Positions 5,734-60,409 of a stretch of 64,000 nucleotides of DNA are shown one piece after another. The notes below the pieces were generated by a model. It was not told the DNA's origin. It saw nothing but the letters and a program-made list of their open reading frames with translations, and did not search any database. Source of the DNA: Candidatus Woesearchaeota archaeon (GTDB lineage Archaea > Nanobdellota > Nanobdellia > Woesearchaeales > B72-G16); assembly GCA_003650545.1 (NCBI GenBank), contig QMQO01000002.1, positions 16,485 to 80,484 on the forward strand, given 5' to 3'. The position numbers and the translations under genes were made by a program. How positions within the stretch are numbered: the stretch's first letter is position 1; the number at the start of each line of letters is the position of its first letter.

Positions 5734-6561
5734 CTATAACAAATCAAAAGGACTTTTGACCTTCAACAGTGCTAAGGAAGCAGTATGCAGATAAACCTTT
5801 GTGCTTTTTAGAGTAGTATGCCCAAGAAGAGATTGTGCAGTAAGTAAGTCATAACCATTTTCAATCAAATGCGTAGCAAACGAATGTCTAAGTGTGTGCG
5901 GATGTATATTCTTCTTGATATTAGCTTTTCTTGTAGCTTTTCTGATAATTTCTTGGACAGTTCTTTGACAAATATGTGTTCTTTTATTTCCTTCAAACAA
6001 CCAATCGTCATGATTAAGTTTATTATCTTCAATGTATTTGAAAATTTCTTGTTTCAATTTATCTGCTATGATAAATGGTCTATCTTTATTTCCTTTACCA
6101 TTTCTTACCCAGCCAAGGTTTTGGTTTAATTCAATGTCTTTAACTTTTAAATGAACAAGTTCACTTAGCCTAAGACCAGCAGAATACATTAATTTTAACA
6201 TTAGTTTATGTTTAACATTACTAACAACATTAAAGATTTTTAGGATTTCATTCTTAGTGAGGACTATAGGAAGAGCTTTAGGTCTTTTTGAATATTTCAG
6301 TTTTAGATTTATTCTTTTCTTCAATACTTCAATAACCAAAAATTTGATCGCGCTAAGATAAACATTAATAGTGCTGCCTGTTGCATTTGTATCAACAAAT
6401 TTGTTCATAAACTCTTTTATAGCTTTCTTGGTCAATCTTGCTGGTTCTATCTTGCAATAATCCAAAAACCGTCTAACACAGTAAAGATATGTCTTTGTGG
6501 TTCTTGGGCTATATTTTCTGCGAAGCAGCTCTTTTTTCATTTCGTATATGGGGTCTATCAT
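5734..6561 (-). CDS. tyrosine recombinase / integrase (XerA/XerCD-like)
   Basis: C-terminal HTLRHSFATHLIENGYDLLTAQSLLGHTTLKSTKVYLH gives the R..H..R..Y catalytic signature. Length 275 aa. Confidence 0.8.
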   Translation of the reverse strand: MIDPIYEMKKELLRRKYSPRTTKTYLYCVRRFLDYCKIEPARLTKKAIKEFMNKFVDTNATGSTINVYLSAIKFLVIEVLKKRINLKLKYSKRPKALPIVLTKNEILKIFNVVSNVKHKLMLKLMYSAGLRLSELVHLKVKDIELNQNLGWVRNGKGNKDRPFIIADKLKQEIFKYIEDNKLNHDDWLFEGNKRTHICQRTVQEIIRKATRKANIKKNIHPHTLRHSFATHLIENGYDLLTAQSLLGHTTLKSTKVYLHTASLALLKVKSPFDLL

Positions 6562-6689
6562 ATATCAATCAATGTAAACTTGCTTTATATAGTTCACGTC
6601 TAGATGTCCAGTGTCCAGTGCCAACACCTTTAAAAATATATTAAAAATATATACTTCCAGACACAGTTTATATACATTCTATAATTTAA

Positions 6690-6859: not shown

Positions 6860-6986
6860 TAGATATTTATTATATACTTATAGACATTTATTATAATAGA
6901 TATTTATTATATACTTGTAGATATTTATTATAATAGATATTTATTATATACTTATAGACATTTATTATAATAGATATTTATTATAG
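6860..6986. repeat. tandem repeat, about 3.4 x 37 bp (tagatatttattatatacttatagacatttattataa), each unit built of two about 18-bp half-repeats
   Basis: Read directly. Nearly perfect copies with 1-2 substitutions. Confidence 0.85.
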
Positions 6987-7105
6987 TTTTTAATATTTCA
7001 TTGATACAGCCTTTAAAACCTATGAATCTCTCAAACTTCGCATATAATATGTTATGTGCAATTCGAAAACCTGCCTAGAAATTATTTCTTTTTAGGGGCG
7101 GGGCG

Positions 7106-8029
7106 TTATGAGCCTTCATTTGGAAATTGTCCCTTTGCAACTAAGTTTAAGGAAGGTATATGTGCAGGTGTTGTAAATACATAATTTATTGCTTCTCCTA
7201 CTGCTGTTGGTGGAGCTAATCTTATTCCTTTATTTCTCCAATCACATTGGTATTCGTCTGCTGCGTCTTTTACTGCTTCTTGAACAACAGGATTATCGTA
7301 CATACCAGTATCTACCCCACCCGGTCGTATTGTGGTTACAAAGATATTCTCCTTGTATAGCCCTAACATACAAGCATTTGCATACCTGTCTATTGCTCCT
7401 TTGGCTGCACAATGTGTTGCCCCATAAGAATATCCTCTTATTGCGCTCATTGAAGTAATTAATGCTATTCTTGTTTCATCTTGTTCTCTGAATGTTGGCA
7501 AAAGTTCTTGCATCATTAAATGAGTTGCTCGTAGAACAATCTGAGATTCTTTTTCTATCAGTTCAAGAGGTATCTTTTCAATTGGCAGATATGGATTGTC
7601 GTCTTTTAGTTTATAACTTCCTGCTCCTAAACCAACAGATTGTACCCAGTAGATTGGTTTATCTCTCGGTAAATGCTCAACAAATCTTTTTACTTGATCC
7701 TCATCAAGTAAATCTAATGCAGAATATTCTATTAAATGGTCGTCAACAAATTCTGCTAAACATTTTTTTATATTCTTTAATTTACCCTCAGATCTTGAGA
7801 CCATATGAACCGTGGCACTATTTAGTGCAAGGACTCCTGCTACAGCCGAACCTATGTTTAATTTCATCTCTTGTCCTTCTACTTCTATTGAATCATGGCT
7901 TGGCTCTCCTGTTGTTATGTCATAAAAGATATGTTTAAGAGGTTTGTAACCACAGCCAGTTATGATTATTCTTTTTCCTTTCAATCTTTCAGATTTAACT
8001 ATGCGTTCTAATCTACTCATTTTAACCAC
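7106..8029 (-). CDS. short-chain dehydrogenase/reductase (SDR) family oxidoreductase
   Basis: N-terminal KRIIITGCGY glycine-rich dinucleotide-binding segment. Active-site YGATHCAAK (Y-x3-K) and IRPGGVDTGM are present. Confidence 0.6.
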   Translation of the reverse strand: MVKMSRLERIVKSERLKGKRIIITGCGYKPLKHIFYDITTGEPSHDSIEVEGQEMKLNIGSAVAGVLALNSATVHMVSRSEGKLKNIKKCLAEFVDDHLIEYSALDLLDEDQVKRFVEHLPRDKPIYWVQSVGLGAGSYKLKDDNPYLPIEKIPLELIEKESQIVLRATHLMMQELLPTFREQDETRIALITSMSAIRGYSYGATHCAAKGAIDRYANACMLGLYKENIFVTTIRPGGVDTGMYDNPVVQEAVKDAADEYQCDWRNKGIRLAPPTAVGEAINYVFTTPAHIPSLNLVAKGQFPNEGS

Positions 8030-8074
8030 TAAGAAATAGTTATAACCATAACTATAATTAACTTTACCCGATAA

Positions 8075-8797
8075 TTATCGGTATCTAAGAAAATAGTCTA
8101 TAATCTTATTTTCCGCTTTTCTTAAGTTTTCTTGGAAAGTAGAGTAAGATCTCTTAATAGTTTTGGCAAGCCTTTGCAATGTTAATTTTCTTGGATATTT
8201 ATAGTATCCTGCCTTATACGCTATTCTTAATGCTTCTAATTGTTTTTCTGTTAAAAGAGGTGTCAATTCAAGACTTGTAACACTTCTAAGTGTTTCTTTT
8301 TTAATAGAAAATAATTCTCCATGATAATATCTTGTTGCTGCTTGAATTATCTTATTTAATTCTTTGCGGTTTAAAGAAGCAATCTCCCAATATTCCCATC
8401 CATCGCTTGCTACATGAACTGGCTTTACCCTAATATATTGAGGATTATAAAATATTCTAATTTCAGCTTTTGATTCTCTTGAAAGAGGATGCTGGACATG
8501 GACAAGAATAAAATCATGGTGTTTTTCTACAGTCTTAACTCGTTTATCTTTTTTTACTTCTTGAATAAATTTTCTTTTATTTTCTTCAGAACCAGAAATA
8601 GTTCCACCAACAAGAAGATTAATTTTTTTGTTCTTAATAAAATTCGTGTAGGGAACCGCAAAAAACTCTATTCTAAATTTTTTACATAAAGGACTATAAA
8701 TATCTTCATCATCTTTTAATTTAAATTTAGCAACCCACATAATCCGATAATTGTCGGTTAAGTATATAAATATTACGCCCCGCCCTTTATTGATCAT
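8075..8797 (-). CDS. HTH_10 (Bat/bacterio-opsin-activator-type) transcriptional regulator
   Basis: C-terminal LTEKQLEALRIAYKAGYYKYPRKLTLQRLAKTIKRSYSTFQENLRKAE helix-turn-helix. TATA-like atttatatac and a GC-rich 11-mer lie just upstream. Confidence 0.55.
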   Translation of the reverse strand: MINKGRGVIFIYLTDNYRIMWVAKFKLKDDEDIYSPLCKKFRIEFFAVPYTNFIKNKKINLLVGGTISGSEENKRKFIQEVKKDKRVKTVEKHHDFILVHVQHPLSRESKAEIRIFYNPQYIRVKPVHVASDGWEYWEIASLNRKELNKIIQAATRYYHGELFSIKKETLRSVTSLELTPLLTEKQLEALRIAYKAGYYKYPRKLTLQRLAKTIKRSYSTFQENLRKAENKIIDYFLRYR

Positions 8798-8839
8798 AAA
8801 TCACTTGAAATTGGCAGGTTTTCGAACTCTGCGGGATTT

Positions 8840-8975
8840 CTGCCTACGGCAGAACCGTTGCACTATCCCTTGGTCTTTTCTTCGAAAAGACGCACATAAC
8901 ACGGCTTATGCGGTTCACTCACCTTGCAGGTTCGTTCACCCAAATTTCCCTTCGGGAAACTTCGCATAAGCCGAT
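8840..8975. repeat. structured repeat element, copy 1
   Basis: Enclosing stem cggcttatgcgg / cgcataagccg, internal tttccc-ttcg-ggaaa hairpin, linkers ccaaat and cttcg, 3-prime atatgtta. An upstream hairpin tctgcctacggcaga is shared with copy 4. The region to 9250 also holds a second degenerate copy. Confidence 0.6.
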
Positions 8976-9249
8976 ATGTTAGCCAAAATTTTCTTACTGC
9001 CTAGAAGGTGCATACGCTTACGCTATTTCCGAAAATCATTCTGATAGGTGCCTTCGTTAAATCGATTAAAACAAAAACGGTTTTTCAATTGCTTCGCAAC
9101 TAAACCTAACATTGATTTAACGACTTCATTTCATTCCATCCAAATTTTTACTTACTTTATAGACGAGAGAGGGGGCTTAGTTCTTCGGACAGATAGACTT
9201 TTATTGCGTAAAAGAAGATTTTAAGGAAGAGAAAAAACTACATAAGGAT

Positions 9250-10167
9250 TTAACTCAATTGTTTTTGTATGCCCAGTTGACTAGCATTCTCAATAATAAC
9301 TTTAACTACTTGTTTTATACCACTAATGTACTTATCAAAATCTAATATTCCTTCCTTTGCGATGTCTTTTACTTTATCCCTAAAACTTTCTTCATTCAGT
9401 CCCGATTGATATAGCTCTTTATATTGTTTGTATACATAACCAATCGGTAATTTAATGTTTTTTCCAAAATCAATGATAATATTGTAAAACGTTGCAACTA
9501 TCCCAATATATGGTACTAAAACTGTTAATTTCATATCCCTAATTAATGTGCGGTAAGTTTCCTTAAAAACATCACTTAGTAATCTATTCAATATTTTGTT
9601 TCTGTTTCCTTTTCCAATTTCTCTCTCAAGTTTTGAGATATATTTATTATCTAAAGTGATGATATCTTTTTCTTTCCTTAAATAACCAAAATCAATCAAA
9701 AATTTGATATACCTTATTTGCTTCTTGTCAAAAGACTTAGATAATGAATCTGCATGATGATCTTTCCTATAAAATGCATCTAGAACTATTCTAAGCGGAG
9801 TTAAAGCCTGATGAATTCCAGGTATTCTCACGATTTGGCTGGAAAGTAATCTTATTATTATTCTCTCTCTTAATTTATGTAATTCTTTATATTTTTCTAG
9901 CGCATTATATACGATTTCCTTTGAGTCGGAATAATTCATTAAACCGCCTTTGTTATCTAGTTTAATAAGACCAACATTTCTTAATTTGATAAAATAAACA
10001 AATTCAGTGTTTAATTCTTGATCAAAAATCCTTTTTGGAACTAAGAAGTCTAGATATATTTCTATCTCGTTCTTCAATTTGGTTACATCTTTGTTTAGAC
10101 TGATGCCATTCCAATATTTCTTTACGACTATTTCTCTTGCCTTTTTTAGTATTAATTCTTGTTCCAT
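9250..10167 (-). CDS. hypothetical protein, last gene of the Type III R-M operon
   Basis: Start is 1-2 nt from the stop of the upstream gene. No recognisable motifs. Confidence 0.5.
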   Translation of the reverse strand: MEQELILKKAREIVVKKYWNGISLNKDVTKLKNEIEIYLDFLVPKRIFDQELNTEFVYFIKLRNVGLIKLDNKGGLMNYSDSKEIVYNALEKYKELHKLRERIIIRLLSSQIVRIPGIHQALTPLRIVLDAFYRKDHHADSLSKSFDKKQIRYIKFLIDFGYLRKEKDIITLDNKYISKLEREIGKGNRNKILNRLLSDVFKETYRTLIRDMKLTVLVPYIGIVATFYNIIIDFGKNIKLPIGYVYKQYKELYQSGLNEESFRDKVKDIAKEGILDFDKYISGIKQVVKVIIENASQLGIQKQLS

Positions 10168-10168
10168 T

Positions 10169-10849
10169 TTAAGTTAACCATTGATTTAGAGATTTTTTCT
10201 CACTTTTTTCTATAGGTTCAAACCAATAAACCCTATTTAAAAATGTACTTGCAAACCTACTTAGAACATGATGGGGAGTTTTAACTCTTATATTTTTCAA
10301 ATTCAGCACCTCTTTTTGATGATTATATACTAGATCTGGATCATAGATATAAAAATGTTCCGAATCAAAACCATGTATTACCACCGCATGAAGATAATCA
10401 GGATCCTCGCCTCTTACTTCAATTTTGTGAGGGTTAATTACTATACTATTATTAATATATTTTGGATTTATTAGTAAAATTGGGTAAACCCCACTTTCAA
10501 TCATAAATTTGAGATCATCCAACGAAAAATCAACTTTAAAACGTAAGACAATATTAGCTGTTTTTAAATTTTGATTAAGTTTCAGATGAAATTTATCTAA
10601 TTCAAACACACCATGATACATTTCTTTAAGCAAACGTAAATCTCTCCCGCTTAACTTAGCCATTCTTTTTGCGACACTGTTTGGGTTATAACCCACCCAA
10701 TTTTTTATTTTTCTATAATTAATGTGTTTTAGATTTACTCTCTTATCTTTTTTAAATTGATTTAATATAATTGTGTATAATACACAAGGTAAGCATTGTT
10801 CGTCAGTCTGTTTCCGTGGCTTACTTATTTCCAAAACTTTTTTTTCCAT
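10169..10849 (-). CDS. hypothetical protein; Cys...His-Val-Val...Asp-Pro pattern reminiscent of papain-like (C39-type) peptidases
   Basis: QCLPC near the N-terminus, then HAVVIHGFDSEHFYIYDPDL. This is a pattern resemblance only. Translationally coupled to res (TAA-n-ATG). Confidence 0.35.
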   Translation of the reverse strand: MEKKVLEISKPRKQTDEQCLPCVLYTIILNQFKKDKRVNLKHINYRKIKNWVGYNPNSVAKRMAKLSGRDLRLLKEMYHGVFELDKFHLKLNQNLKTANIVLRFKVDFSLDDLKFMIESGVYPILLINPKYINNSIVINPHKIEVRGEDPDYLHAVVIHGFDSEHFYIYDPDLVYNHQKEVLNLKNIRVKTPHHVLSRFASTFLNRVYWFEPIEKSEKKSLNQWLT

Positions 10850-10850
10850 C

Positions 10851-13445
10851 TTAATCTAATCTTAATTTTTCATTGAACACATTAATAAAATCAGCTTTCA
10901 TACCTTCATTATAGAATGGCATACCTATAAGTTTATAACTTTCATTTTCTGCTAAAATCTGTAATTGACAATTACCTTCAATCTCTTTCAAAAATTCTTC
11001 TTTCCATTCGTCTGTTTTTAACAAGTGAGTTCCCTTCGGTTCAATAAATAATTGATATTGAATTAGTTTTTGTTTCCCTTTTTCTTTCAGGAATAAAACA
11101 AAATCCGGCTCTGTCGGCCTTCCGTCTGAGAATCTGTATAGCTTGAATAAATTGGCGTTCCTAACAAGATAAATCTCCGAATATTTTTTGCTTAATTTAT
11201 CCATCACTCCATGCAAAAACTGAATAAAGTGCTTTTCTTCGGATGTTCCGTAATTTTCGTTATAAACATACCATTTCTTATCAGATAAATTTAATCTTAG
11301 ATTCTCTTTTGTTGTTTCACTCATTGCGATACCGAATTCTTGGTCTGAATAATCACCTACATTAATGTTTAATGTCTTATCTTTTACAACATCTTTAATT
11401 CTGTGCTGAACAAATAATTTTGTTCCTTTATAATCTGTATAACCAGCTCTTATTTGTGATTCTAATTGTTTGAGGATGTTTAAACATACTTCAAGTTTAT
11501 CATCAGGGCTTAAATTGTCCAGTCTTGTTTTTGAGCTTCTTATATCTACTTTTATTTGTTTTAATGATTCAATGAATTCATTAATTGAGTTTAACTTTGG
11601 GAAATACTTTTTAAGATTGTCAAATTTATAAAAGTCAAGTTTTGAGAGTGCTTTTCTTAGTACAGCTTCATTAAAACTCTTTAATTCAAATGGTTTAGTT
11701 ATTCTATCTTCTTCTGCTTTTATTTCATCTACAAAAATAGTTCTGTCTTGTGTAAAACCACTTCTTAAATTAAATGGACCGAAATTTTTTGAAACATCAA
11801 TATCGCTTATATCTTTTATTCTTGACCTGTCAGCTTCAACTCTTTGGTTAATGAAAATAAAACCTTTTTTCCAGAAGTCAGTTTTTTTAATATCTTCTTT
11901 AACTTTGAGATGAATTATTTTTGGTTCTTGCGGCGGCATTATTCCAGTGTCCCTTAGAGCAGTTTTTAATTCCTGAATATATCTTGGATTATGTGTGCTA
12001 TGATAATACAACTCTTCAATAATCTTCAAATCATTTTCCAAATCCTGATCAAATTTTCTTCTGAATTTATCTTGTTCATCATTTAGTTTAAATGGAAAAT
12101 ATCTTGCTCCTCTTCCTATCAGCTGGGCTTCAGCTATTGTTGTTTTTCCCGGCCTGTTTCCTTTGCTGTCTCTTGTATCGTATAATCTAACAATATCAAA
12201 TAAGTTTAGAACATCCCAACCTTCATTTAGCATATCAACAGCAAAAATAGCTCTTATCTCATTGTTTTTATCTTCAAGAGAATTTAGTTTTAATTGTTTT
12301 TCCTCATCGATATTATTTGAATCAAGGAGCATACATTTCTCTTCTGAAAAATCTTCTTTTAATTCTGTAACTAAGTTATCAAATGATATTTTTTCTTTCT
12401 CAAAATATTCAAATGCTTTCTGTAAAACACTTCCATTTGCTTGTGATTTTATTCTTTGAATATCTCTTATAGTTAAATTTCGTATTTTTTCAAGAAATTC
12501 CTCATAATTTTTTTCAGATTCTTTTATTGTTTTTGATTTAAACAAAATTACCGGTTTTAAATGGACTTTATTTTTTTCTGCTATTTTCCTTCTGTATTGG
12601 CTTAAAATCATTGCTTGAAGCATTCTGTCAAGATTATCCAAATCTGCTTGTAAAACTTTTACTTCTTTTGAATATCCATCTTGTCTAAATTCTTTTAATG
12701 TGTATTCAAAAATAATCTTATTTTGATATTTCTCATAAATAGCAGGATTATCCAAATCAACGGTTGCAGTGTATTCCAGCATTATGTTTTCTGTATTTGA
12801 GTTAAAAATATTGTTTACTGTATGCTCCCATGTGGTTTTGGCTATCGTTTCCTCTTTTCCTAACTTATTTTTTGTCCATGCGTTTATGTGATGAGCTTCA
12901 TCTGAGATTATGACTATTTTTTTGTCTTTAAAATCTTCATAAGTTAAACTATTCTCTTTTGGCATATTCATATTAGAATGAAGCCCCTGAATTGTCGTGA
13001 AAAGAATATTTATGTCATGATTATTTGATGTTTCAAAATTATTAACTTCGTTTATTTTTACTTCCTTATCCTCAAACTTGATTTTTTCATTAAAGAGATA
13101 TTTTGATGAATTAGGATTAAGAAAATTATCTTTTGTTTTTTCTATGATGTTAGTGCTGTTTACGAAAAACAAGAAGTTTCTGTATCCTTTATTGTAAAGA
13201 TAGAGTATATTTGCGGCCATTAAAAGAGTTTTTCCTGAACCTGTTGCCATGTGAAACAAAAGCTGAGAAGGTTTTATTCTTTGAGGATAATTTTCAAGAT
13301 AATCAATAAAACGAGCTATTGCTTCTTTTTGGTATTCTCTTAATTCAAAAGCAGGATTTAAATTATGGATTATAAACTTCGGGATTTCCTTGTTTAATCT
13401 TCCAAGTTTTGAGAGTGTATCATAATCCTGCCTTAGAGTAGTCAT
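10851..13445 (-). CDS. res: Type III restriction enzyme Res subunit (SF2 helicase + C-terminal PD-(D/E)XK nuclease)
   Basis: Motif I MATGSGKTLLMAA, motif II IISDEAHH, motif VI QLIGRGARY. C-terminal FIEPKGTHL (ExK nuclease motif). Length 864 aa. Confidence 0.8.
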   Translation of the reverse strand: MTTLRQDYDTLSKLGRLNKEIPKFIIHNLNPAFELREYQKEAIARFIDYLENYPQRIKPSQLLFHMATGSGKTLLMAANILYLYNKGYRNFLFFVNSTNIIEKTKDNFLNPNSSKYLFNEKIKFEDKEVKINEVNNFETSNNHDINILFTTIQGLHSNMNMPKENSLTYEDFKDKKIVIISDEAHHINAWTKNKLGKEETIAKTTWEHTVNNIFNSNTENIMLEYTATVDLDNPAIYEKYQNKIIFEYTLKEFRQDGYSKEVKVLQADLDNLDRMLQAMILSQYRRKIAEKNKVHLKPVILFKSKTIKESEKNYEEFLEKIRNLTIRDIQRIKSQANGSVLQKAFEYFEKEKISFDNLVTELKEDFSEEKCMLLDSNNIDEEKQLKLNSLEDKNNEIRAIFAVDMLNEGWDVLNLFDIVRLYDTRDSKGNRPGKTTIAEAQLIGRGARYFPFKLNDEQDKFRRKFDQDLENDLKIIEELYYHSTHNPRYIQELKTALRDTGIMPPQEPKIIHLKVKEDIKKTDFWKKGFIFINQRVEADRSRIKDISDIDVSKNFGPFNLRSGFTQDRTIFVDEIKAEEDRITKPFELKSFNEAVLRKALSKLDFYKFDNLKKYFPKLNSINEFIESLKQIKVDIRSSKTRLDNLSPDDKLEVCLNILKQLESQIRAGYTDYKGTKLFVQHRIKDVVKDKTLNINVGDYSDQEFGIAMSETTKENLRLNLSDKKWYVYNENYGTSEEKHFIQFLHGVMDKLSKKYSEIYLVRNANLFKLYRFSDGRPTEPDFVLFLKEKGKQKLIQYQLFIEPKGTHLLKTDEWKEEFLKEIEGNCQLQILAENESYKLIGMPFYNEGMKADFINVFNEKLRLD

Positions 13446-14069
13446 TTACAACCCTCCTGCAATTGCTTGAGCAATTAAGTTCGTTAAAACATTTAATGGG
13501 ACTTGTCTCAAAAAATCTCTTCCTTTTTGTTTAAGTTCATTCAATAAAGCATTTATTTTAGATTTCTGGATGTTGTCTTTTTTTGTCTCTTCTTCTATCT
13601 CTTTTATTATCCTTTTTATTTGCTCTTTATTTTGAAAATTATTTTTATCTAAAATATTATGAACATCACTAAATGAGGTTATGGTGATATTCATTTGATT
13701 AAGATTTTGATTTAAGTTGGTGTTTGTTATATTTATGTTAGGAACAGGAGAGTCTATATTTACTTCTTTATTTTTATCAAATTTTCCTAATTCATAATTA
13801 TCCTTTATTATTTGAATACCACCTAAACAAGATTCTATATCTCTGTCATAAAAAGCAAATTCTTCAGCAGGTGCGAAATAAAATGGATAAAAAATACCTT
13901 GAAAAAGTTTTTTTATTTCTTGTTCTGAATAAAGTTCTACAATTATACTTTTAATTTTTCCTCGTATCGCATACATTAAATCTTGATTTTCTTTTGAAGG
14001 TCTATTTTTTATTTCATTAAGTTGATTTTCATAATCTTCAAGTTTGGATATTACTTTTTGAATATCCAT
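13446..14069 (-). CDS. hypothetical Asn/Lys-rich coiled-coil protein inserted between mod and res
   Basis: Start refined to MDIQKVISKL with a ggaggt SD 8 nt upstream. The mod stop TAA is 1 nt before this ATG. The gene abuts the res start. Confidence 0.5.
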   Translation of the reverse strand: MDIQKVISKLEDYENQLNEIKNRPSKENQDLMYAIRGKIKSIIVELYSEQEIKKLFQGIFYPFYFAPAEEFAFYDRDIESCLGGIQIIKDNYELGKFDKNKEVNIDSPVPNINITNTNLNQNLNQMNITITSFSDVHNILDKNNFQNKEQIKRIIKEIEEETKKDNIQKSKINALLNELKQKGRDFLRQVPLNVLTNLIAQAIAGGL

Positions 14070-14070
14070 T

Positions 14071-16047
14071 TTATAAACCTCCATAAAATTTTTTATTAAG
14101 CTCAACATCCTCTTTGCTTATTTTATATTGCTTGTCTTCTATTTCGCTGTAATTGGTATATAGGTTATTTGCATCAAGACATTCAATAAGAAGTTTCTTC
14201 TGTTCTTCTGCTGATAATTTCTTAAAGTCTTCAATATTTTCGTCAAAAAGTTTAGGATCTACACGATAACTCAAAAATGCGTGTTGCTTCATATCTTCCC
14301 AGATTTTAAGAAGCTCTTTTGTATCTTTTGCTTTCTTAATCTTCCGGACAAATCCTTCATTAAGTTCTTTTAGCTCCATATAAACAAAATCTCCACCGCC
14401 CTTCCAACCAACAGCTTTTGAGATGCCTGTTTGATCTCCATTGATTACATTTTTCAATCTCACAACAGCACTATTCTCTCCATAATCCAATTGCTCAACA
14501 CCAATATATTGTCTGCCCATTTTGTGAGCTACTGCACAAGTTGTTCCGGATCCTAAATGGTAATCTAAAACTATATCTCCTTCTTTTGTAGCCATGTCTA
14601 ATATCTTTTTCATTAATTTTTCTGGTTTTTTACCCGCTTTTAGTTCAACATTCCCTTCTTTAGCTATTCCTTGATGTAAATTTTCTACCCAGAGATTGTC
14701 ATTTTTAATTAATTTCAATACACTTTTTCCTTCATTACTTTTAATTGCACTATCCCTTAACCATACAATTAATGAACCATCTAAGAAATAATACCTATAA
14801 ATTTGTCCAGCAGATTTACCTTTTGTAGGAATGTATTCAATAGAGTAAAGACCTCTTTTTGGAATATGAGGCATTATTCTCTGCATTAAACCCCCTTGTG
14901 GATTAGTAGTTCTAAAAATCTTCTCAAAATACTTATAATAATTTTCATCAGTTCTATCTTTTGTTAGTAATGTTTCAACATTAAAATTTTCATGCTTGAA
15001 AACTTTTATTTTACCAACATTTCCACCGTTTATATCTTTAACATAGTTCTCCTTACCAAAATCTGTTAAAATTTTATTATACACCCTTTTGAAATTATCT
15101 CCTAGTTCTCCTTCAGCAAACGGTTTATAATTTTCAATTTTACTGCTATCTTTAGCATAAATTAGAATATACTCACAAATATCAAATAAGAAACTTTCTT
15201 GCCCTACACCCCCTCCTGCTTTTGCTTTTAGGGTTATCATCGTCAAAAAGTTCTCTCTACCAAATATCTCATCCATTAGCACTTTTAGATATGCTTGCTC
15301 TCTGTTATCAATCTGAACAAAAATAACCCCATCATCCCTTAACAAGTCTCTCGCAACTTCTAACCTGTTCTTCATAAAAGTTAGCCAAGTGGAATGATTA
15401 AAATTATCATTATACTTAAACTCATCATTTCCTGTATTATACGGTGGATCAATATAAATCAGCTTTACTTTTCCGGCAAATCTTTTCTTTAAAGAATGTA
15501 AAACCAAAAGATTATTTCCTTTTATGATTAAGTTGTCTGTTGGTTTGATTTCTTTGACTTTATGCTCTCCTTTGGCGTCAATTCTTTTAAAGTTTGTAAA
15601 TACTTTTGGGTCTAATAATCTATCAATTTCATCCGGAGCAAGAATTTCATTGTGAAAAATCTCTTTTCTTTTTTCGTCAGATTTCTCTTGTCCACCTTCT
15701 AATATACAATCTTTGTATGGCCAAGCTAAAACAACTTCTTTACTTTTTGAGATATATCGGTCATCATCCGTAATTAAACCAATTTTGTTTTTAAAAGCAG
15801 TGTAAGAATCAGGCAGGAACTCTTTATTATCAACAAATTTCATGAATTTTTCTTTGTCAAAAATTAATGTCCCTTCAACTTCAGTGAAAAAATGCTCCTT
15901 AATTTTTTTGTTGGTCAGAAGAAGCTTGATCAAATCTTTATCTAATTTTAATGCCAACTCTACAATCCTATTTTTTAACAATTCCCCATCAGATACCAAT
16001 CTTTCATCTTTTTTTAAAAGTGATTTTAATTCATCTAAAAGTGTCAT
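14071..16047 (-). CDS. mod: Type III R-M Mod subunit (beta-class N6-adenine/N4-cytosine DNA methyltransferase)
   Basis: Motif IV LIYIDPPYNTGND precedes motif I DYHLGSGTTCAVAHKMGRQYIGVE. Length 658 aa. Confidence 0.8.
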   Translation of the reverse strand: MTLLDELKSLLKKDERLVSDGELLKNRIVELALKLDKDLIKLLLTNKKIKEHFFTEVEGTLIFDKEKFMKFVDNKEFLPDSYTAFKNKIGLITDDDRYISKSKEVVLAWPYKDCILEGGQEKSDEKRKEIFHNEILAPDEIDRLLDPKVFTNFKRIDAKGEHKVKEIKPTDNLIIKGNNLLVLHSLKKRFAGKVKLIYIDPPYNTGNDEFKYNDNFNHSTWLTFMKNRLEVARDLLRDDGVIFVQIDNREQAYLKVLMDEIFGRENFLTMITLKAKAGGGVGQESFLFDICEYILIYAKDSSKIENYKPFAEGELGDNFKRVYNKILTDFGKENYVKDINGGNVGKIKVFKHENFNVETLLTKDRTDENYYKYFEKIFRTTNPQGGLMQRIMPHIPKRGLYSIEYIPTKGKSAGQIYRYYFLDGSLIVWLRDSAIKSNEGKSVLKLIKNDNLWVENLHQGIAKEGNVELKAGKKPEKLMKKILDMATKEGDIVLDYHLGSGTTCAVAHKMGRQYIGVEQLDYGENSAVVRLKNVINGDQTGISKAVGWKGGGDFVYMELKELNEGFVRKIKKAKDTKELLKIWEDMKQHAFLSYRVDPKLFDENIEDFKKLSAEEQKKLLIECLDANNLYTNYSEIEDKQYKISKEDVELNKKFYGGL

Positions 16048-16187
16048 TTTTCATCCTCCTCTTTAAGCTGTTCTTCCATCATTATTTCAAACTGTCTTGA
16101 TATTAATAAACCCTTTTTCTTGCAGAAATTTCTATATTTATCATATAATTCTGAATTAACCCTTAAAGTGATATTTTTTGATTCCAT
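16044..16187 (-). CDS. small ribbon-helix-helix (CopG-like) protein, putative controller of the R-M operon; not in supplied ORF track
   Basis: Minus-strand translation MESKNITLRVNSELYDKYRNFCKKKGLLISRQFEIMMEEQLKEEDEK (47 aa). Its stop overlaps the mod start codon (ATGA). The beta-strand ITLRV plus two helices fit an RHH fold. Confidence 0.5.
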   Translation of the reverse strand: MESKNITLRVNSELYDKYRNFCKKKGLLISRQFEIMMEEQLKEEDEK

Positions 16188-16205
16188 TTTGCACCCCTTT
16201 TTATT

Positions 16206-16231
16206 ACAAATATATTCATTTGTATATAAAT
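16206..16231. promoter_or_regulatory. near-palindrome acaaatatattcatttgt overlapping a TATA-like box upstream of the RHH gene (candidate operator/promoter)
   Basis: Outer 6+6 bp inverted repeat ACAAAT...ATTTGT read directly. TATA tatataaata lies about 35-44 nt upstream of the minus-strand ATG. Confidence 0.35.
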
Positions 16232-16469
16232 ATTTCTATCCTAATGTTCTTTTTCAGAAAAAGAACCAAAAACAGCCCCCTCTCTCGTCTTTCAGACATG
16301 CTCAAAAATGGAACATTTTTGGCATCCTAAAAATCTTTGATTTTTATGATATTGCCTGCTACGCAGTTATTGATATCAAAGTAAGTAAAAACTACGGCAC
16401 CTATCTGATTTTCGGCAGTAAGAAAACTCAAAAATTTAATGTTCCTTGCGGAACTTAAATTTTTGGATT

Positions 16470-16640
16470 TGCTAACGCAAATCTCGGCTAACACGCATTA
16501 AGCGGGAAATTAGCCTAACCACACCCGCCCCTAATTTCCCCAAATTTTGAGTCCAGCTCTGTTCCGCTCAGGTTTTGTGGGTTGCCTCAAAACCTTCGCT
16601 CCACGAGGGACTCAAAACTTCGCTTAATGCGATATGTTAA
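16470..16640. repeat. structured repeat element, copy 2
   Basis: Enclosing stem acgcattaagcg / cgcttaatgcg. Hairpin A gggaaattag...ctaatttccc. Linker ccaaat. Hairpin B gagtcc...gggactc. Linker cttcg. 3-prime atatgtta. Confidence 0.65.
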
Positions 16641-16682
16641 TTGCAATTCAGAAATCAGCCTAGAAAGTTTAGGGGGCAAAAT

Positions 16683-17195
16683 TTAAAAGTCTCTTGTAAT
16701 CTTATGTTCTTTAGAGAATTTTATTTCCAATTGGTCATAGAAGTCATTACAAGATTTTATTTTTTCTTCATCTGTCCTTTGAATTCCTTTCCTCTTTAAT
16801 TCAAGATATTCTTTCAGCCATTTCTCCCAAGCATTTTTAGCTTCAGGATTCTCTTTAAAGTATCTTCTTAAAGTTTGCTTAATCTCTTTAGCAACTCCCT
16901 GTGGGTCAAAAAGTATTTTTTCCTCTAAATATGGATATGACAAGAACGGATACTTTTTGATACGATTAAGCAATTTCTTTTTTGGCCAGAATTCAAAGTC
17001 CACTTTAATTCCATAACGATATTCATGAGTATCTTTATATCGTCCACCATCATAAATAATCTCAATATCAACATCTGAATCTTTATGAGCTGTTCCTCTC
17101 GCTATACTTCCAAAAAGTAAGATACTCACTACTTTTGGATCTTTCTTCTTCTCTTCTATGACCTCTTTTATTATTTTTCTATGAATACTTAGCAT
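16683..17195 (-). CDS. minimal nucleotidyltransferase (Pol-beta superfamily)
   Basis: LFGSIARGTAHKDSDVDIEII gives the GS-x9-DxD NTase signature. Flanked by inverted copies of ttagggggcaaaat. Confidence 0.7.
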   Translation of the reverse strand: MLSIHRKIIKEVIEEKKKDPKVVSILLFGSIARGTAHKDSDVDIEIIYDGGRYKDTHEYRYGIKVDFEFWPKKKLLNRIKKYPFLSYPYLEEKILFDPQGVAKEIKQTLRRYFKENPEAKNAWEKWLKEYLELKRKGIQRTDEEKIKSCNDFYDQLEIKFSKEHKITRDF

Positions 17196-17294
17196 ATAGG
17201 AATAAATAAAATTCTTAGAATATAAATTTTGCCCCTTAATTGTTTTGTTTGATGTATCGCTTCGCTCATAAGATGACGGCTGATTTCTGAACTC

Positions 17295-17440
17295 ACTTCG
17301 CTACGCTTCGTGCCACGCTGCGCTCTCGCCTTCGGCTCGGGGCAATTAACAGGAATTTAACGGAAAAATGCTCAGCTCGCATTTTTCCCAAATCGTTCGC
17401 TACGCTCACGACTTCGTTAAATTCCAATGTTATGCTCAAT
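17295..17440. repeat. structured repeat element, copy 3
   Basis: Enclosing stem ggaatttaacgg / cgttaaattcc. Hairpin A ggaaaaatgc-tcagctc-gcatttttcc. Linker cccaaat. 3-prime aatgttatgctcaat. Upstream about 55 bp is alignable with copy 4. Confidence 0.65.
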
Positions 17441-17499
17441 CCGCCCGCTCGCCTCTTTTCAGAAAGAATTAAATATAATTGTTCTAAACTATTATTATT

Positions 17500-18327
17500 A
17501 TGATGAGATTCAAAAAGATTGTTTTGTATGATTTGAGGTCAAAACCTCTTGAAAAAGAATTTGTTGATAAACTAAAACAGTTTGCAGAATCTATAAAGGT
17601 TGTTTTTGCTAAAGGAGAATATCTAAAAGTTTTGAAATTGTCAGATTTGGAAGATGCTGATGCTTTAATCACACGCATCTTTGATTATTATGATGATTCA
17701 TTATTTGAAAATTCAAATTTGAGATATATTGGTGCAATGCATACTGATGTTTCACACTTTAATATTCAACTTCTTAATAGAAAAGGAATTACATTAACTA
17801 ATATTCCTGGCTATGCTACTGAAGCAGTAGCTGAATTAACAATTTCTGCATTGCTTAATATTTCTAGACAAACTCATGACGCAATGAATTTTGTTAAACA
17901 AGGCAACTGGGGTTTTGAAAAGTTTTTGGGCTGGGAATTGGGAGGAAAGACCTTGGGAATAATTGGCTTAGGAAGAATAGGAAGCAGAGTTGCAGAAATT
18001 GCTCAGGGATTTGGAATGAATATTATTTATTATTCTAAAGAGGAAAAAGACGTTTCTTATAAATTTGTTGAATTGGACAATTTATTAAAGCAAAGCGATG
18101 TTGTAAGTTTGCATTGTAATTTAACTGATGAAACAAAAAATATCTTAAATAAAAAAAATCTGAAATTAATGAAGCAAGGAGCTGTTTTACTTAATTCTGC
18201 TAGAATGGAATTAGTTGATTTAGAAGCTTTATATGAACTTTGTAAAGAAAGAAAGATTTTTGTTTGGTTTGATGAACTTCAGGATGCCTTCTCTCTTCTT
18301 ATTTGTGAGATAATCTCTATTGTATAA
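17500..18327 (+). CDS. D-isomer-specific 2-hydroxyacid dehydrogenase family protein, apparently C-terminally truncated
   Basis: NAD-binding GIIGLGRIGSRVAEIA. The ORF ends after the NAD domain at ...KIFVWFDELQDAFSLLICEIISIV without the usual C-terminal catalytic His segment. Repeat element copy 4 lies immediately downstream. Confidence 0.6.
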   Translation: MMRFKKIVLYDLRSKPLEKEFVDKLKQFAESIKVVFAKGEYLKVLKLSDLEDADALITRIFDYYDDSLFENSNLRYIGAMHTDVSHFNIQLLNRKGITLTNIPGYATEAVAELTISALLNISRQTHDAMNFVKQGNWGFEKFLGWELGGKTLGIIGLGRIGSRVAEIAQGFGMNIIYYSKEEKDVSYKFVELDNLLKQSDVVSLHCNLTDETKNILNKKNLKLMKQGAVLLNSARMELVDLEALYELCKERKIFVWFDELQDAFSLLICEIISIV

Positions 18328-18514
18328 CAGCCATGCACTACACCAAATAATCTTATCATCTTACCCCTCTCAAAAAAATATCTAAGATTTATTCACTTCT
18401 TAATTTTTTGGAATAATGTCAATCTTAAAAACCTTTCGGAATAGAGGGAGTTCCTGACTCTAAATTTAGTCTGCCTTCGGCAGTTATTTAATATTAAAGT
18501 GAAAATTCGACTCT

Positions 18515-18661
18515 CTCCGCTTCGCTCCGAGCCACGCTACGCGCTCTCGCCTACAGCTCGGGTCGGCTAACAGGCATTATCCGAGAAATCCCTCGGCTCG
18601 GGATTTCTCCAAATTTTTGCTAACGCAAAAACTTCGGATAATGCCATATGTTATGCTCAAT
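18515..18661. repeat. structured repeat element, copy 4
   Basis: Enclosing stem ggcattatccgag / ctcggataatgcc. Hairpin A gagaaatccc-tcggctc-gggatttctc. Linker ccaaat. Hairpin B ttttgc-taac-gcaaaa. Linker cttcg. 3-prime atatgttatgctcaat. Confidence 0.65.
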
Positions 18662-18722
18662 AAAAAATCGGCTAAAAATAGAAAGGGTCGGCTCTTGAAA
18701 ATAGTCTCACTTCGTGAGAAAT

Positions 18723-19688
18723 TTATCTATTCAAAATGTAGGCTCTTGCTTTGCCCTCTTTAAATTCAAGAATTCCAGCAGCAGGTTTTAAGTTTCTACC
18801 AACATGGTCATAAACTGCTCCAGGATTGAAGTCAAGTCTATCTGATAATTCTCCCTGTTTAACAGGTTGCTCATCAGGAGTTATTAGTCCATATGCTTCA
18901 TGAATGTGTCCGCTCACAGCAAATTTAGAACCAATTGCTTTTCTAACTCTTGCTAAATCAACTCCGCCAACATTAATTCCTCTATCAATAACATCCAATC
19001 CTCTTTTTGTCCTGTATTTTTGAGGAATATGTGTTGCAATCAAAAGAGGTTTATCACATTGATATTGTTTTGCTAATTCTCCTAATCTTTCAAAATCTTC
19101 TCCATTTCTTAAATATCCATCTGGAACACAAAATCGAGAATTTGCATTTCCACCTAAAGCAACAATAGTCAAATCATCTAAATCAGCAACAGGAACTTTT
19201 TCCATATCTACAACATTTGAATATTTTGATGTCAAATGTTCTAATGCTTTGTCATAGGCTCTTTTTTGCTCGTGATTTCCTGGAACTGCTAAAACAAGTT
19301 TTCCTGTTGCAGCTACTGGCTCAACAACGCTTAAAATTTCATTAAAATCATCTTTTGCTCCTTCGTAATCCCCAAAAGAATGCGATAAATCTCCTGCTAA
19401 AAAATAAACATCAACACCTTCTTGATTTAGCTGATTTGCAAAAAATTGAGAATTTCCTTGATGAGCATGAAGATCAGCCATTACGCCTAATTTTATTTGT
19501 CCATCTCCTCTTGTTGCTTGACTAATAACTCCATCTTGAATTTGATATTCAATACCTTTAAGATTTATTGTTTTAGGAGAATCTGACTTTTTACTGCAAC
19601 CTGTCAAAGGCAATCCTGAAGCTACTGCTCCAGCAACTAAAGCCCCTCTTCCAAGCCATCCTAAAAACTCTCTTCTATTCATTCTCAT
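18723..19688 (-). CDS. calcineurin-like metallophosphoesterase, Tat-secreted lipoprotein
   Basis: MRMNRREFLGWLGRGALVAGAVASGLPLTGC (twin-arginine signal plus lipobox Cys). GDLSH and GNHE phosphoesterase motifs. Confidence 0.75.
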   Translation of the reverse strand: MRMNRREFLGWLGRGALVAGAVASGLPLTGCSKKSDSPKTINLKGIEYQIQDGVISQATRGDGQIKLGVMADLHAHQGNSQFFANQLNQEGVDVYFLAGDLSHSFGDYEGAKDDFNEILSVVEPVAATGKLVLAVPGNHEQKRAYDKALEHLTSKYSNVVDMEKVPVADLDDLTIVALGGNANSRFCVPDGYLRNGEDFERLGELAKQYQCDKPLLIATHIPQKYRTKRGLDVIDRGINVGGVDLARVRKAIGSKFAVSGHIHEAYGLITPDEQPVKQGELSDRLDFNPGAVYDHVGRNLKPAAGILEFKEGKARAYILNR

Positions 19689-26508: not shown

Positions 26509-26992
26509 TATGACGCCAAAAAGAAGGCTTGCTAACACGCTTAATCCTATGAAGACTGGCAGGTACTCCAAAAGAGTTCCTCACTGCCATACTTGTGTCT
26601 TCAAAAACAGATGCAGTGCCTATGATCCTAAAGACCCAAAAGCAGCATGCAAAGTAATTGATATTCCTAACTATTTTCATCTTATGAGTGCCTTGACTTT
26701 TCGCACAGAAGAAGATTTTGATGATTTTGTGAACAAACTCACTCAAAGATTGTATCTGAAGAATATGACCAGTGATGACTGGGACAAAATGAAAGACTTC
26801 TTGTTGATATTTCTAAGGGTCAAAGACTCAAAATTCAGGAATCCCAGAGAACAAACAGTCAACATCCAGATCAATAATTTTCATGAGGAGTTCAACTTGT
26901 TCAAAGATGTCACTTTGAAAGTGCTGAGAAAACATCCTGAAGTTATGAAGGAATGGAGGAATGCTCTTGATGCTGCCAAACAATCCGATTGA
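26509..26992 (+). CDS. hypothetical protein, positional candidate for terminase small subunit
   Basis: Position immediately upstream of TerL. Basic N-terminus. No motif support. Confidence 0.3.
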
Positions 26993-28436
26993 AACAGCGC
27001 TCTTTGAAAGTTTTAAAGAGCCGACTTATGAGAACTTCATAGGATTTGTGAAGAGGTATCTCGCTCCTTATATGGAACAAGAATTTGTGGAAGAAGACTA
27101 TTACAAGGAGTGGTTTGAACTTGAGCAAAAATACCAATACAATGCGATTGAAGCGCCAAGGGGACATAGCAAGAGTGAAAACTTCACAGTTTGGTTTACT
27201 ATTTATTATGCTGTTTATGATCTCAAACACGAACAAATAATCTCATCTGTAAGCGGAGATCAGACAAATGAATTATTTGACAGGATTAAATATTTCTTCT
27301 ATGTAAGTCCTTATCTTAATAGGAATTTTAAGCCAGAAGGAGCTGACAAGAATGTCAGTTTAAGTTCCTGGAACTCAAAAAAGATCGTTCTCAAGAATGA
27401 TGCTGTAATTCATGCGAGAAGTATTGCTGGCAAGTGGAGAGGTCTTCACGTTGACAGGATTGTTTGTGATGACATCATTACAGAAGACAGCACGTTAAGC
27501 GATAAGCAAACCATTAACAAGTTTTATTCAGCCGTGTTTAATTGCTCAACCGCAAAGAAAGGAAGCATAACTGTAATTGGGACTCCCTTGCGTTATTCAG
27601 ACATACTTTTTGATCTTAAGGCCAATAAGCAATTTAATTTCAAGGTTTACCCTGCTATTCTTAACTTTGAGGAGAGAAAGGTATTATCTCCTAAAAGAAA
27701 ATCTTTTGATGAATTGATGAGGATCAAAGAAACCATAGGTTCTTTGAGGTTTCAGTGCGAGTTCATGCTTAATCCTATCGATGATCACAGTTCTATCTTC
27801 AAGAGGGCTTGGCTGAGAAGGGCAAGAAATGAGAGCATAGAACTGATTAGGAACAGAAGGGAACTTCAACAGTACGGTTTTGAAGTCACGTCTATTATGT
27901 GCGGTGCTGATTTCGCTTTCTCTGAAAGGAAAAGCGCAAACTATTCAGTGTTTTTGACATTAGCAAGACTGACTGATGGCAGACTCTTGCTTTGTGATTT
28001 TTTCAGGAAAAAAGGAATGACTGGCCAGCAACAGATTGACAAGTTAAGAGAACTTCATTCAGCATATGATTATGATGTTATGGCATTGGAAGAAAACAGC
28101 ATTATGGCAATAAGCAGGGATATCAAGAACATTGGCTTGCCCATAAAGACCCTTAGGACAGGAACAAGGGACACAGACGTTTCAATCTCAAAAACAAATG
28201 CGATCTTAAGGATGACCACGTGGTTTGAGAATAATCAAGTTGTCATACCTTATGCGAGTGAAGAAGCTAAAGAAAAGTACGAACTTCTTGAGCAAGAGTT
28301 CCTGAGTTTTGCTCTTGAGGATGGGAAGATTACAGAAATAGGAGTTCATCCAGACATTCCAATAGCTTTTGTTTATGCAGCTGAAGCTGTGAAAAGAACA
28401 ACCCCCACAGGTTTTGTCACAAGCATAGTCAGATAA
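26961..28436 (+). CDS. terL: terminase large subunit
   Basis: Walker A-like IEAPRGHSKSENFTVW, Walker B-like LHVDRIVCDDII, and a C-terminal nuclease-type region. Length 491 aa. Confidence 0.75.
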   Translation: MLLMLPNNPIETALFESFKEPTYENFIGFVKRYLAPYMEQEFVEEDYYKEWFELEQKYQYNAIEAPRGHSKSENFTVWFTIYYAVYDLKHEQIISSVSGDQTNELFDRIKYFFYVSPYLNRNFKPEGADKNVSLSSWNSKKIVLKNDAVIHARSIAGKWRGLHVDRIVCDDIITEDSTLSDKQTINKFYSAVFNCSTAKKGSITVIGTPLRYSDILFDLKANKQFNFKVYPAILNFEERKVLSPKRKSFDELMRIKETIGSLRFQCEFMLNPIDDHSSIFKRAWLRRARNESIELIRNRRELQQYGFEVTSIMCGADFAFSERKSANYSVFLTLARLTDGRLLLCDFFRKKGMTGQQQIDKLRELHSAYDYDVMALEENSIMAISRDIKNIGLPIKTLRTGTRDTDVSISKTNAILRMTTWFENNQVVIPYASEEAKEKYELLEQEFLSFALEDGKITEIGVHPDIPIAFVYAAEAVKRTTPTGFVTSIVR

Positions 28437-28459: not shown

Positions 28460-28834
28460 ATGTTTGAACCAGATAAACTATCCAAGCGAGACAAGAGAAT
28501 ACTGAAAGCCCTGTTGTACTTTTATCCCAGGAAGAAAAGCGCTGCTCAAATCCACAATTACATCTCAAAATATTGGCAGAAGAGCGGCATAAGGAATGCG
28601 AAAGCATTAGGACATATTTTGATGAGGTTTCCTGTTGATTCTGAATTAACAGTGATCAGTTCAGTGACTAAAACTGGGATAATAAACAGCAGATATTTGA
28701 GGATTTATGTTCTCAAAAAGAACTTCGTGAAGAAATATTATAAAGAAAAAAATGACCTGATAAAATTGGGAAATAAGAAGTCACGACGCAGTTCAAAGGC
28801 TAAAAAAGATGGAAGAACAAAAAGAAAAAAGTAA
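28460..28834 (+). CDS. hypothetical basic protein
   Basis: aaaggaggtaagg SD. Lys/Arg-rich C-terminal tail. Confidence 0.4.
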   Translation: MFEPDKLSKRDKRILKALLYFYPRKKSAAQIHNYISKYWQKSGIRNAKALGHILMRFPVDSELTVISSVTKTGIINSRYLRIYVLKKNFVKKYYKEKNDLIKLGNKKSRRSSKAKKDGRTKRKK

Positions 28835-60408: not shown

Positions 60409-60409
60409 G

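Follow-up and report, generated by a model that had tools for sequence, protein, structure and literature searches.

Putative attC-like three-way-junction sites beside a Xer-like recombinase gene in a woesearchaeal cassette array

Integrons are the textbook bacterial device for collecting and shuffling accessory genes, and they are defined by an integrase with an extra domain together with attC hairpins. Plain Xer recombinases are also used by mobile DNA. The single-stranded DNA of CTXϕ integrates at dif1 of Vibrio cholerae via XerCD, a case that involves a phage genome, the XerC/XerD pair, and a simple forked stem. The pdif modules of Acinetobacter and the integrative mobile elements exploiting Xer (IMEX) at dif carry plain 28-bp duplex sites, often in alternating orientation and with no covarying hairpins. 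Among Archaea, integrons have been reported with canonical IntI and attC sites (Ghaly et al. 2022, PMC9668308), and the dif of Thermococcales is a single site with 11-bp arms and a 6-bp spacer that does not lie beside xerA (PMC2958812, PMC3646895). Here we describe four structured repeats in 64,000 nucleotides from a Candidatus Woesearchaeota archaeon (assembly GCA_003650545.1, contig QMQO01000002.1, positions 16,485 to 80,484 of the forward strand; hereafter the window, in whose numbering all positions are given). We consider it probable that these repeats are not RNA genes but serve mobile gene cassettes as DNA recombination sites, in a function analogous to that of integron attC, and that the cassette array is served by a neighbouring, divergently transcribed tyrosine recombinase of Xer type.

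The locus shares with integrons a divergent tyrosine recombinase gene and a candidate insertion site next to it with a GTT(A) crossover box. Also in common are arrays of a single orientation, built of roughly 0.8-kb units that mostly hold one gene, with cargo of accessory, defence, and toxin–antitoxin type. The sites are conserved in structure rather than in sequence, have TAAC...GTTA outer boxes, and are matched by cassette starts complementary to the cassette's own inner (R″) box. The differences lie in both the enzyme and the site. The recombinase of the window has no IntI-specific domain and scores as a XerA. Its sites form a three-way junction with invariant CCAAAT and ACTTCG linkers and are preceded by a 5′ accessory module; where an integron attC, a single imperfect hairpin with R and L boxes and a variable terminal loop, has an unpaired central spacer and extrahelical bases, they have a continuous 11-bp stem (the L stem) and a one-sided bulge of 2–3 nucleotides. 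Unlike in integrons, the orientation bias of open reading frames is weak in the archaeal arrays, and some cassettes reach 7.7 kb.

The enzyme resembles that of the archaeal XerA/dif system in protein family and length and is collinear with the XerA of Pyrococcus abyssi (PDB 4a8e), whereas the core site described here is always 100–490 nucleotides upstream of the gene, with cassette arrays beyond it. The array resembles pdif modules and IMEX in consisting of discrete modules bounded by Xer-type sites that accumulate in tandem at one locus. The likeness to CTXϕ and XerCD would be one of mechanism, with a Xer recombinase that has no integron domain acting on a folded strand that imitates a duplex, so that one strand exchange would suffice. 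In contrast to CTXϕ, the units are gene cassettes in arrays, and our site motif had no match in 2.9 million viral contigs.

Structure and covariation of the four sites

All four elements lie on the forward strand, with cores at 8889–8989 (site 1), 16481–16647 (site 2), 17339–17440 (site 3), and 18560–18661 (site 4, the last of the array). The original prediction, made from the sequence alone, had described four same-strand copies of one conserved architecture with conserved linkers that bracket genes, and this description holds for every copy. Its copies were longer than our cores because they included a 5′ module of 40–65 nucleotides. The 5′ part of each core consists of 5–9 variable nucleotides, TAACA, an 11-nucleotide stem half ending in CG, hairpin A, and CCAAAT. 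The 3′ part consists of hairpin B, (A)ACTT, the second stem half (CG plus nine nucleotides), an unpaired bulge, TGTTA, five variable nucleotides (N5), and AAT. The enclosing stems had been quoted correctly, and each copy folds. Outside them, TAACA is paired with TGTTA, which adds a second stem stacked on the first; the two, separated by the bulge of ATA (AA in copy 3), close the element as a whole into a three-way junction.

Some details of the predicted plan needed revision. What had been taken as a CTTCG linker is partly paired, since its CG belongs to the enclosing stem, and the TAAC and GTTA boxes outside that stem are paired too. The quoted 3′ sequence, ATATGTTA, does not occur in copy 3, which reads AATGTTA. 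Hairpin A is a common structure, but the version in copy 1 is weak and eroded (4 + 2 bp), and hairpin B of copy 2 is enlarged to about 75 nucleotides. This insertion displaced the centre of a four-copy MAFFT alignment, and we rebuilt the covariance model (R1) from six copies of similar length.

In DNA folding of either strand, all copies adopt the three-way junction, and their z-scores relative to dinucleotide shuffles run from −4.4 to −7.7 (−4.4, −7.3, −5.1, and −7.3 for sites 1 to 4). Model R1 scores site 1 at 86.3 bits (E = 5e-20), site 2 at 68.6 bits (76.7 bits with model R2), site 3 at 93.4 bits, and site 4 at 97 bits (E = 7.6e-23). An anchored site pattern matches the window three times, with 0.00 matches expected. 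As predicted, the elements are GC islands (0.42–0.475) in surroundings of 0.27–0.32 (about 0.29). In the remaining 45 kb of the window, the covariance model detected no additional full copy. A permuted or partial site lies at 9049–9150 on the forward strand, in the leader of the cassette that ends in site 2. It has CTTCGTTAAATCG first, then TAACA and a stem half (TAACAttGATTTAACG) and CCAAAT, with no 3′ half. That leader (8982–9220) has a homolog at the head of the first cassette of another locus (L002), where the genes are different.

The GC-rich 5′ accessory modules contain small hairpins and are found on the forward strand at 8825–8888 before site 1 and at about 16440–16480, 17295–17338, and 18510–18559 before sites 2, 3, and 4. 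In the module of site 1, GGGAT..ATCCC surrounds a hairpin and CCGTTGCACT, and another small hairpin comes next; relatives have GGAAT..ATTCC instead of the GGGAT..ATCCC enclosure. The motifs ACTCTkCGG, CGTTGCACT or CGCTGCGCT, and GCTTCGCTC, along with small hairpins, recur in 239 upstream flanks elsewhere, at a GC content of 0.48–0.52. These modules, together with hairpins A and B and the invariant CCAAAT, may bind an accessory factor or fix the geometry of the junction.

The compensatory base changes that had been proposed from four copies are borne out in larger sets of relatives. In a set of 14 sequences, both partners change in 20 of 28 pairs, and none of 500 shuffles reached the observed value. 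Among 145 distinct sequences, 88.2 per cent of cells are paired (27–45 per cent with slid partners), and the covariation score is 0.571 compared with 0.139 for shuffles. In this larger set the L stem is 94 per cent paired, with compensatory changes at 10 of its 11 pairs, and the base of hairpin B is 98 per cent paired. The arm sequences vary between sites and agree within each site, which makes base pairing, and not reading by a protein, the natural explanation. The mismatches on the forward strand comprise 114 A.C and 52 G.T. An A.C on this strand is a G.T on the bottom strand, so the excess hints that the bottom strand is the one that folds, as in integrons, though the sequences are related and a mutation bias could produce the same spectrum.

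Cassette junctions and the recombinase

The boundaries of the cassettes were set by a rule at the junctions, according to which the five nucleotides after the GTTA of one site are the reverse complement of the five before the TAAC of the next. If a cassette is excised as a circle inside the invariant TGTTA, its first bases should pair with the bases before its own TAAC. Four cassettes, all read on the forward strand and each ending in the site of the same number, are delimited in this way. Cassette 1 (7055–8981, 1927 bp) holds a short-chain dehydrogenase (7106–8029) and an HTH_10 regulator (8075–8797), both on the reverse strand. Cassette 2 (8982–16639, 7658 bp) holds type III restriction–modification genes and partners (9250–16047, reverse strand), with Pfam matches to ResIII, N6_N4_Mtase, and TypeIII_RM_meth. 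Cassette 3 (16640–17432, 793 bp) carries a nucleotidyltransferase (16683–17195, reverse strand; Pfam NTP_transf_2), and cassette 4 (17433–18653, 1221 bp) a D-2-hydroxyacid dehydrogenase (17500–18327, forward strand). The suspected truncation of this last gene is real and C-terminal, as the match to Pfam 2-Hacid_dh_C spans only profile positions 2–147 of 178.

Three of the four junctions in the window obey the rule at 4–5 of 5 positions. At the start of cassette 1, GTTATGTGC of the site next to the recombinase gene (described below) is the reverse complement of GCACATAAC in site 1, with the 5-mer TGTGC answering GCACA before TAAC. After site 1, GTTAGCC matches GGCTAAC of site 2, and GCCAA agrees with the expected GCCGA (the reverse complement of TCGGC) at four of five positions. 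After site 2, GTTAATTGC corresponds to GCAATTAAC in site 3; cassette 3 begins with ATTGC, the reverse complement of GCAAT. Only the junction between sites 3 and 4 breaks the rule (TGCTC where GCCGA is expected). Because this junction coincides with the truncated gene, cassette 4 is probably a chimera of two cassettes.

The rule extends to relatives. In 124 unique adjacent junctions, a 5/5 match occurs in 76 (61 per cent) and a 4/5 match in 25 (20 per cent), while the 5/5 rate in controls is 2.7 per cent for sites from other loci, 5.9 per cent for a site's own two flanks, and 6.6 per cent for non-adjacent sites of the same locus. Agreement is 0.83–0.90 per position at positions 1–5 and then drops to 0.04, 0.02, and 0.34 at positions 6–8, where AAT is conserved. 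The N5 letters were outside the motif used for selection, and the rule therefore concerns unselected positions. We read this complementarity, from its sequence pattern, as the mark of cassettes that would circularize at TGTTA.

The recombinase gene (5734–6561, reverse strand, 275 amino acids; Pfam Phage_integrase, 1.7e-42, plus SAM_4) lies upstream of the array and is transcribed away from it. It scores 222.5 bits with the NCBIfam model recomb_XerA_Arch (NF040815), barely over the cut-off of 220, and 203.8 bits with the integron integrase model TIGR02249, under the cut-off of 265. Among proteins of solved structure it is closest to an integron integrase, VchIntIA (5e-40), followed by XerA from P. 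abyssi and from Thermoplasma (1e-38). A C-terminal (K/R)SPLD motif may be shared with IntI1. We tested for the domain around patch III that defines IntI and found it absent. The alignment to VchIntIA (PDB 2a3v) splits, with 10 residues of the query (183–192) opposite residues 187–237 of IntI, the 51-residue IntI-specific segment. Nine relatives, array-linked or not, likewise fall below the TIGR02249 cut-off and score 197–273 bits with the XerA model; NCBIfam scores do not separate array-linked from other recombinases. The array-linked enzymes are 258–293 amino acids long, and homologs of 270–300 amino acids number in the thousands in Woesearchaeota, Nanoarchaeota, Pacearchaeota, and Aenigmatarchaeota. 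The recombinase beside one other array (L049, 9968–10804) has an in-frame stop after 88 codons, and the same metagenome-assembled genome has an intact paralog (L075) with no site nearby.

A double-strand core site that the original prediction had missed lies at 7032–7062 on the forward strand, 470 bp from the start of the recombinase gene, and reads CAAACTTCG-CATATAATA-TGTTA-TGTGC-AAT. It is like the 3′ half of a cassette site, except that the bulge is missing. By its sequence and position it looks like an integron attI, and we propose it as the point of insertion and the start of cassette 1. Homologous core sites, of the form (C)AAA-n-TTCG-N9-TGTTA-N5-AAT, precede the recombinase start by 100–490 nucleotides in 22 or more genome loci and in the majority of metagenome loci with the gene. 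In 18 loci the 5-mer of the attI-like site could be compared with the first detected site; it matches at 5/5 positions in 11 and at 4/5 in two more, over distances of up to 5.2 kb. Cassette sites repeat the ACTTCG-N9 and TGTTA-N5-AAT of the core in their 3′ half, with 2–3 nucleotides added. Because the fold bulges these additions out, a folded site keeps the helical register of the duplex core. The 5′ halves, taken on the other strand, each correspond to the junction expected in the circular cassette, copied without the bulge. Symmetry between the arms of the core site was sought by eye and not established, though the conserved ACTTCG-N9-TGTTA-N5-AAT was seen.

Between the gene and the core site there are further repeats. 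A direct repeat of GTCCAGTGTCCAGTG lies at 6606–6620 (forward strand), 45 nucleotides upstream of the recombinase start, and 16 of 77 genome loci have the motif 40–85 nucleotides upstream of the gene (background 0.05 per kb). Comparable to the attI1 direct repeats, it could serve as an operator or accessory binding site. The adjacency of site and gene, with the conserved GTCCAGTG repeat between them, suggests a self-contained module. A 37-nucleotide AT-rich tandem repeat of about 3.4 copies is also found here (6860–6985). An independent 1284-nucleotide short-read Logan contig of the same recombinase (L081) ends inside this repeat and not at the attI-like site, and its ending is uninformative on cassette variability.

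These observations can be joined into a mechanism. A cassette would be transiently circular, and the five variable nucleotides before TAACA would pair with the first five of the same cassette after TGTTA. One strand would fold, or a cruciform would be extruded, giving the 11-bp L stem and a 10-bp R stem (TAACA/TGTTA plus the five variable base pairs), parted by the one-sided bulge and capped by the three-way junction of hairpins A and B and CCAAAT. This fold would imitate the bulge-less duplex core beside the recombinase gene, and the Xer-like enzyme could bind the L and R stems as it would the two sides of that core. Strand exchange within TGTTA would then insert a cassette when a folded site meets the core site and excise one when two folded sites meet. 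The outcome would be an array of independently mobile cassettes with accessory and defence genes, through the logic of an integron minus the integron domain. That recombination occurs at these sites, and that folded single-stranded DNA is its substrate in preference to a cruciform or a duplex, we infer from the sequence.

Related arrays and their cargo

We fetched 80 genome loci around homologs of the recombinase (81 with the window). The exact motif of the original prediction occurs in 2 of the 80, and the covariance model raised the count to 6; in each, the sites lie upstream of the recombinase gene and occupy the other strand, which is the arrangement of the window. Scanning generically for AAC-stem...stem-GTT gave too much noise when stems of 9 bp were allowed, whereas a minimum of 11 bp returned the true sites along with three relatives. 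In metagenomes, a stringent site motif identified at least 120 contigs, in which the covariance model found 265 sites. The search for extra copies by covariance model that had been proposed thus returned more than 270 in more than 120 other contigs, and the totals are at least 276 sites in at least 125 loci. At least 74 loci have two or more sites, and none of the 74 is of mixed orientation. The recombinase is upstream and divergent in all 18 site-bearing loci that have a Xer-like recombinase gene, comprising 7 of 7 genome loci and 11 of 11 metagenome contigs. These 11 were selected by the site motif only; a Xer-like homolog, with 30 per cent identity or more, turned out to lie on them as well.

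The median unit is 814 bp long and usually contains one open reading frame, covering about 70 per cent of it. The cargo of the relatives includes methyltransferases, GNAT acetyltransferases, radical SAM, NERD, GmrSD, HAD, MFS, and glyoxalase proteins. Cassette genes are thus of accessory types, to which the window adds type III restriction–modification and the nucleotidyltransferase. One metagenome contig (L146, 6128 nucleotides) contains a 2846-nucleotide unit of four cassettes (1328, 444, 630, and 444 bp) twice, and is either a small cassette-only circle or an assembly artefact.

The genome contig ends within 1.5 kb upstream of the recombinase in 30 of the 80 loci and within the same distance downstream in 2 (P = 2.5e-7), a pattern that fits a repeat-rich or strain-variable array. 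Synteny between the neighbouring genes in the window and the other loci is essentially absent. A search for the same cassette in different array contexts returned only duplicates within contigs and two identities across contigs without informative neighbours, and so no direct proof of shuffling.

Beyond the window, we see about an even chance that such loci form a large, unrecognized class of gene-capture platforms in DPANN archaea, which pair a plain XerA-type recombinase, devoid of the integron-specific domain, with folded three-way-junction DNA sites that mobilize cassettes in Woesearchaeota/Nanoarchaeota, Pacearchaeota-like, and Aenigmatarchaeota hosts. The same balanced odds cover the proposal that this class either invented the integron independently or preserves a 'proto-integron' stage between Xer/dif and IntI/attC, and that it explains part of the archaeal attC clusters that have no integrase. 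Some of the attC clusters lacking an integrase that are reported in Woesearchaeales could partly be such three-way-junction arrays. The literature that we searched describes archaeal integrons with canonical IntI and attC, reviews archaeal tyrosine recombinases, and classifies their families. Within it we found no description of Xer-type recombinases with three-way-junction cassette arrays, though our coverage is incomplete and a prior description is possible.

If the proposal is right, integron logic operates in ultra-small archaea with an ordinary Xer-type recombinase and a more elaborate folded site, and the origin of integrons from Xer-like systems becomes directly testable. It would also provide a mechanism for the hypervariable, poorly assembling accessory regions of DPANN genomes, with a cargo that includes restriction–modification and other defence genes. 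The sequence and structure signature would allow the annotation of arrays that current integron finders would miss or call integrase-less, and the compact pair of recombinase and site might serve as a tool.

Competing explanations and neighbouring genes

Several points weigh against a recombination-site function for the repeats and against service by the adjacent enzyme. The functional claim is wholly computational. Sites are detectable in only 7 of the 81 genome loci with the recombinase family, the window included (many flanks end early), and the recombinase may be mainly a chromosome-dimer resolvase. Without the IntI domain, which reads extrahelical bases, it cannot work exactly as IntI does. 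The orientation of open reading frames relative to the sites is weakly biased (86 same, 51 opposite), unlike in classical integrons, and fold strength is about equal on the two strands. The metagenome loci were picked by a motif that includes ATGTTA-N5-AAT, which makes the conservation of those letters partly circular, and covariance-model alignments lean towards the structure of the model, although the margin over the controls is large.

The alternative that survives best, which we nonetheless regard as unlikely, is hitch-hiking on the Xer/dif system. The core site would be dif, the enzyme the housekeeping XerA, and the cassettes would integrate serially by duplex recombination in the manner of IMEX and pdif, with the hairpin playing no part as substrate. 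The enzyme fits this well. It passes the cut-off of the XerA equivalog model and has no IntI domain, its array-linked and other homologs score alike, and its family is near-ubiquitous in these archaea. Each junction also holds a complete duplex copy of the core (ACTTCG-N9-(bulge)-TGTTA-N5-AAT). Duplex recombination, however, would need neither the 5′ half of the sites nor its covariation, compensatory at nearly every pair of the L stem, nor a 5-mer before TAAC that is complementary to the start of its own cassette. The 2–3 extra nucleotides in the junction copy would shift the register of a duplex, while in the fold they are merely bulged out. Finally, in Thermococcales dif is not beside xerA (PMC2958812).

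We think it very improbable that the elements are a family of structured non-coding, cis-regulatory, or terminator RNAs located between genes, one of two functions that the original prediction had offered. Strong covariation with conserved single-stranded linkers, UUCG-like loops, and GC-rich islands in an AT-rich genome would suit such a family. It receives no help from Rfam, in which there is no match at the gathering score for the window or at E ≤ 1 for 16300–18800, or from the mismatches, which show no enrichment of G.T on the forward strand. The genes that flank the elements lie on either strand. The strongest signal is the complementarity that links an element's 5′ flank to the 3′ flank of the element before it, over hundreds to thousands of bases, and RNA structure does not explain it; the fixed geometry relative to the recombinase is equally unaccounted for. 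Scans for tRNA and tmRNA found nothing, and a scan for sigma-70 promoters and terminators was uninformative, as it used a sigma-70 model and the host is archaeal.

A canonical integron, with an IntI as the recombinase and ordinary attC sites, of the kind already reported for Archaea, as the elements, seems a shade less probable still. The divergent enzyme, the attI-like site, the array of one orientation, the TAAC/GTTA R box, and the rule for cassette starts all agree with it, and Nanoarchaeota and Aenigmatarchaeota are known to have integrons, in most cases arrays for which no IntI is detectable (PMC9668308). The recombinases speak against it, by the 10 residues where VchIntIA has 51, by the TIGR02249 scores of the window protein and its nine relatives, and by their lengths. 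So do the sites, which are conserved three-way junctions with CCAAAT and ACTTCG, while the published archaeal attC sites look like bacterial-type single hairpins and the supplement in which they are given contains no CCAAAT (PMC9668308, Data S9).

Least probable of all is a miniature inverted-repeat transposable element (MITE) or another transposon-derived repeat spreading by transposition, as the copies, although repeated, palindromic, intergenic, and about 100–170 bp long, are never dispersed or mixed in orientation, occur only in arrays beside a tyrosine recombinase gene with no transposase nearby, have no match to the site motif in the viral contigs, and have flanks with cassette-type complementarity and not target-site duplications. 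The earlier idea of a hairpin-dependent mobile element comes near the mark if the repeats are hairpin-type recombination sites; what would move is the genes between them, as cassettes.

The rest of the window is archaeal in character, with a diphthamide synthase fusion and an NFACT protein in addition to the HTH_10 regulator. Directly upstream of the type III methylase gene is a small open reading frame of about 45 amino acids (MESKNITLRVNSELYDKYRNFCKKKGLL..., about 16045–16186, reverse strand), whose product may be a ribbon–helix–helix regulator. It overlaps the forward-strand open reading frame 16120–16458, which is therefore doubtful, as had been suspected; the same suspicion about the open reading frame 8751–8969 seems reasonable. 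Directly after the last cassette and a Metallophos gene, a block resembling a head–tail provirus occupies 19700–51000 on the forward strand. Its genes include a terminase (26961–28436), a portal (28809–30893), a tape-measure-like protein (39687–43799), and tail proteins. Its GC content is 0.36–0.47, compared with 0.29 for the host part, and a tailed provirus is unusual in a DPANN-type genome. A defence island at 54422–63801 contains DISARM-like genes (a DrmE C-terminal domain, a helicase, and an MZB/DUF1998-type protein), followed by a restriction enzyme of AspBHI/Mrr type (62665–63801, reverse strand). At the other end of the window, the open reading frame at 115–1554 includes a long (E/P)-rich repeat, which arises from a 6-nucleotide periodic tandem repeat of CCAGAA type at 1219–1348.

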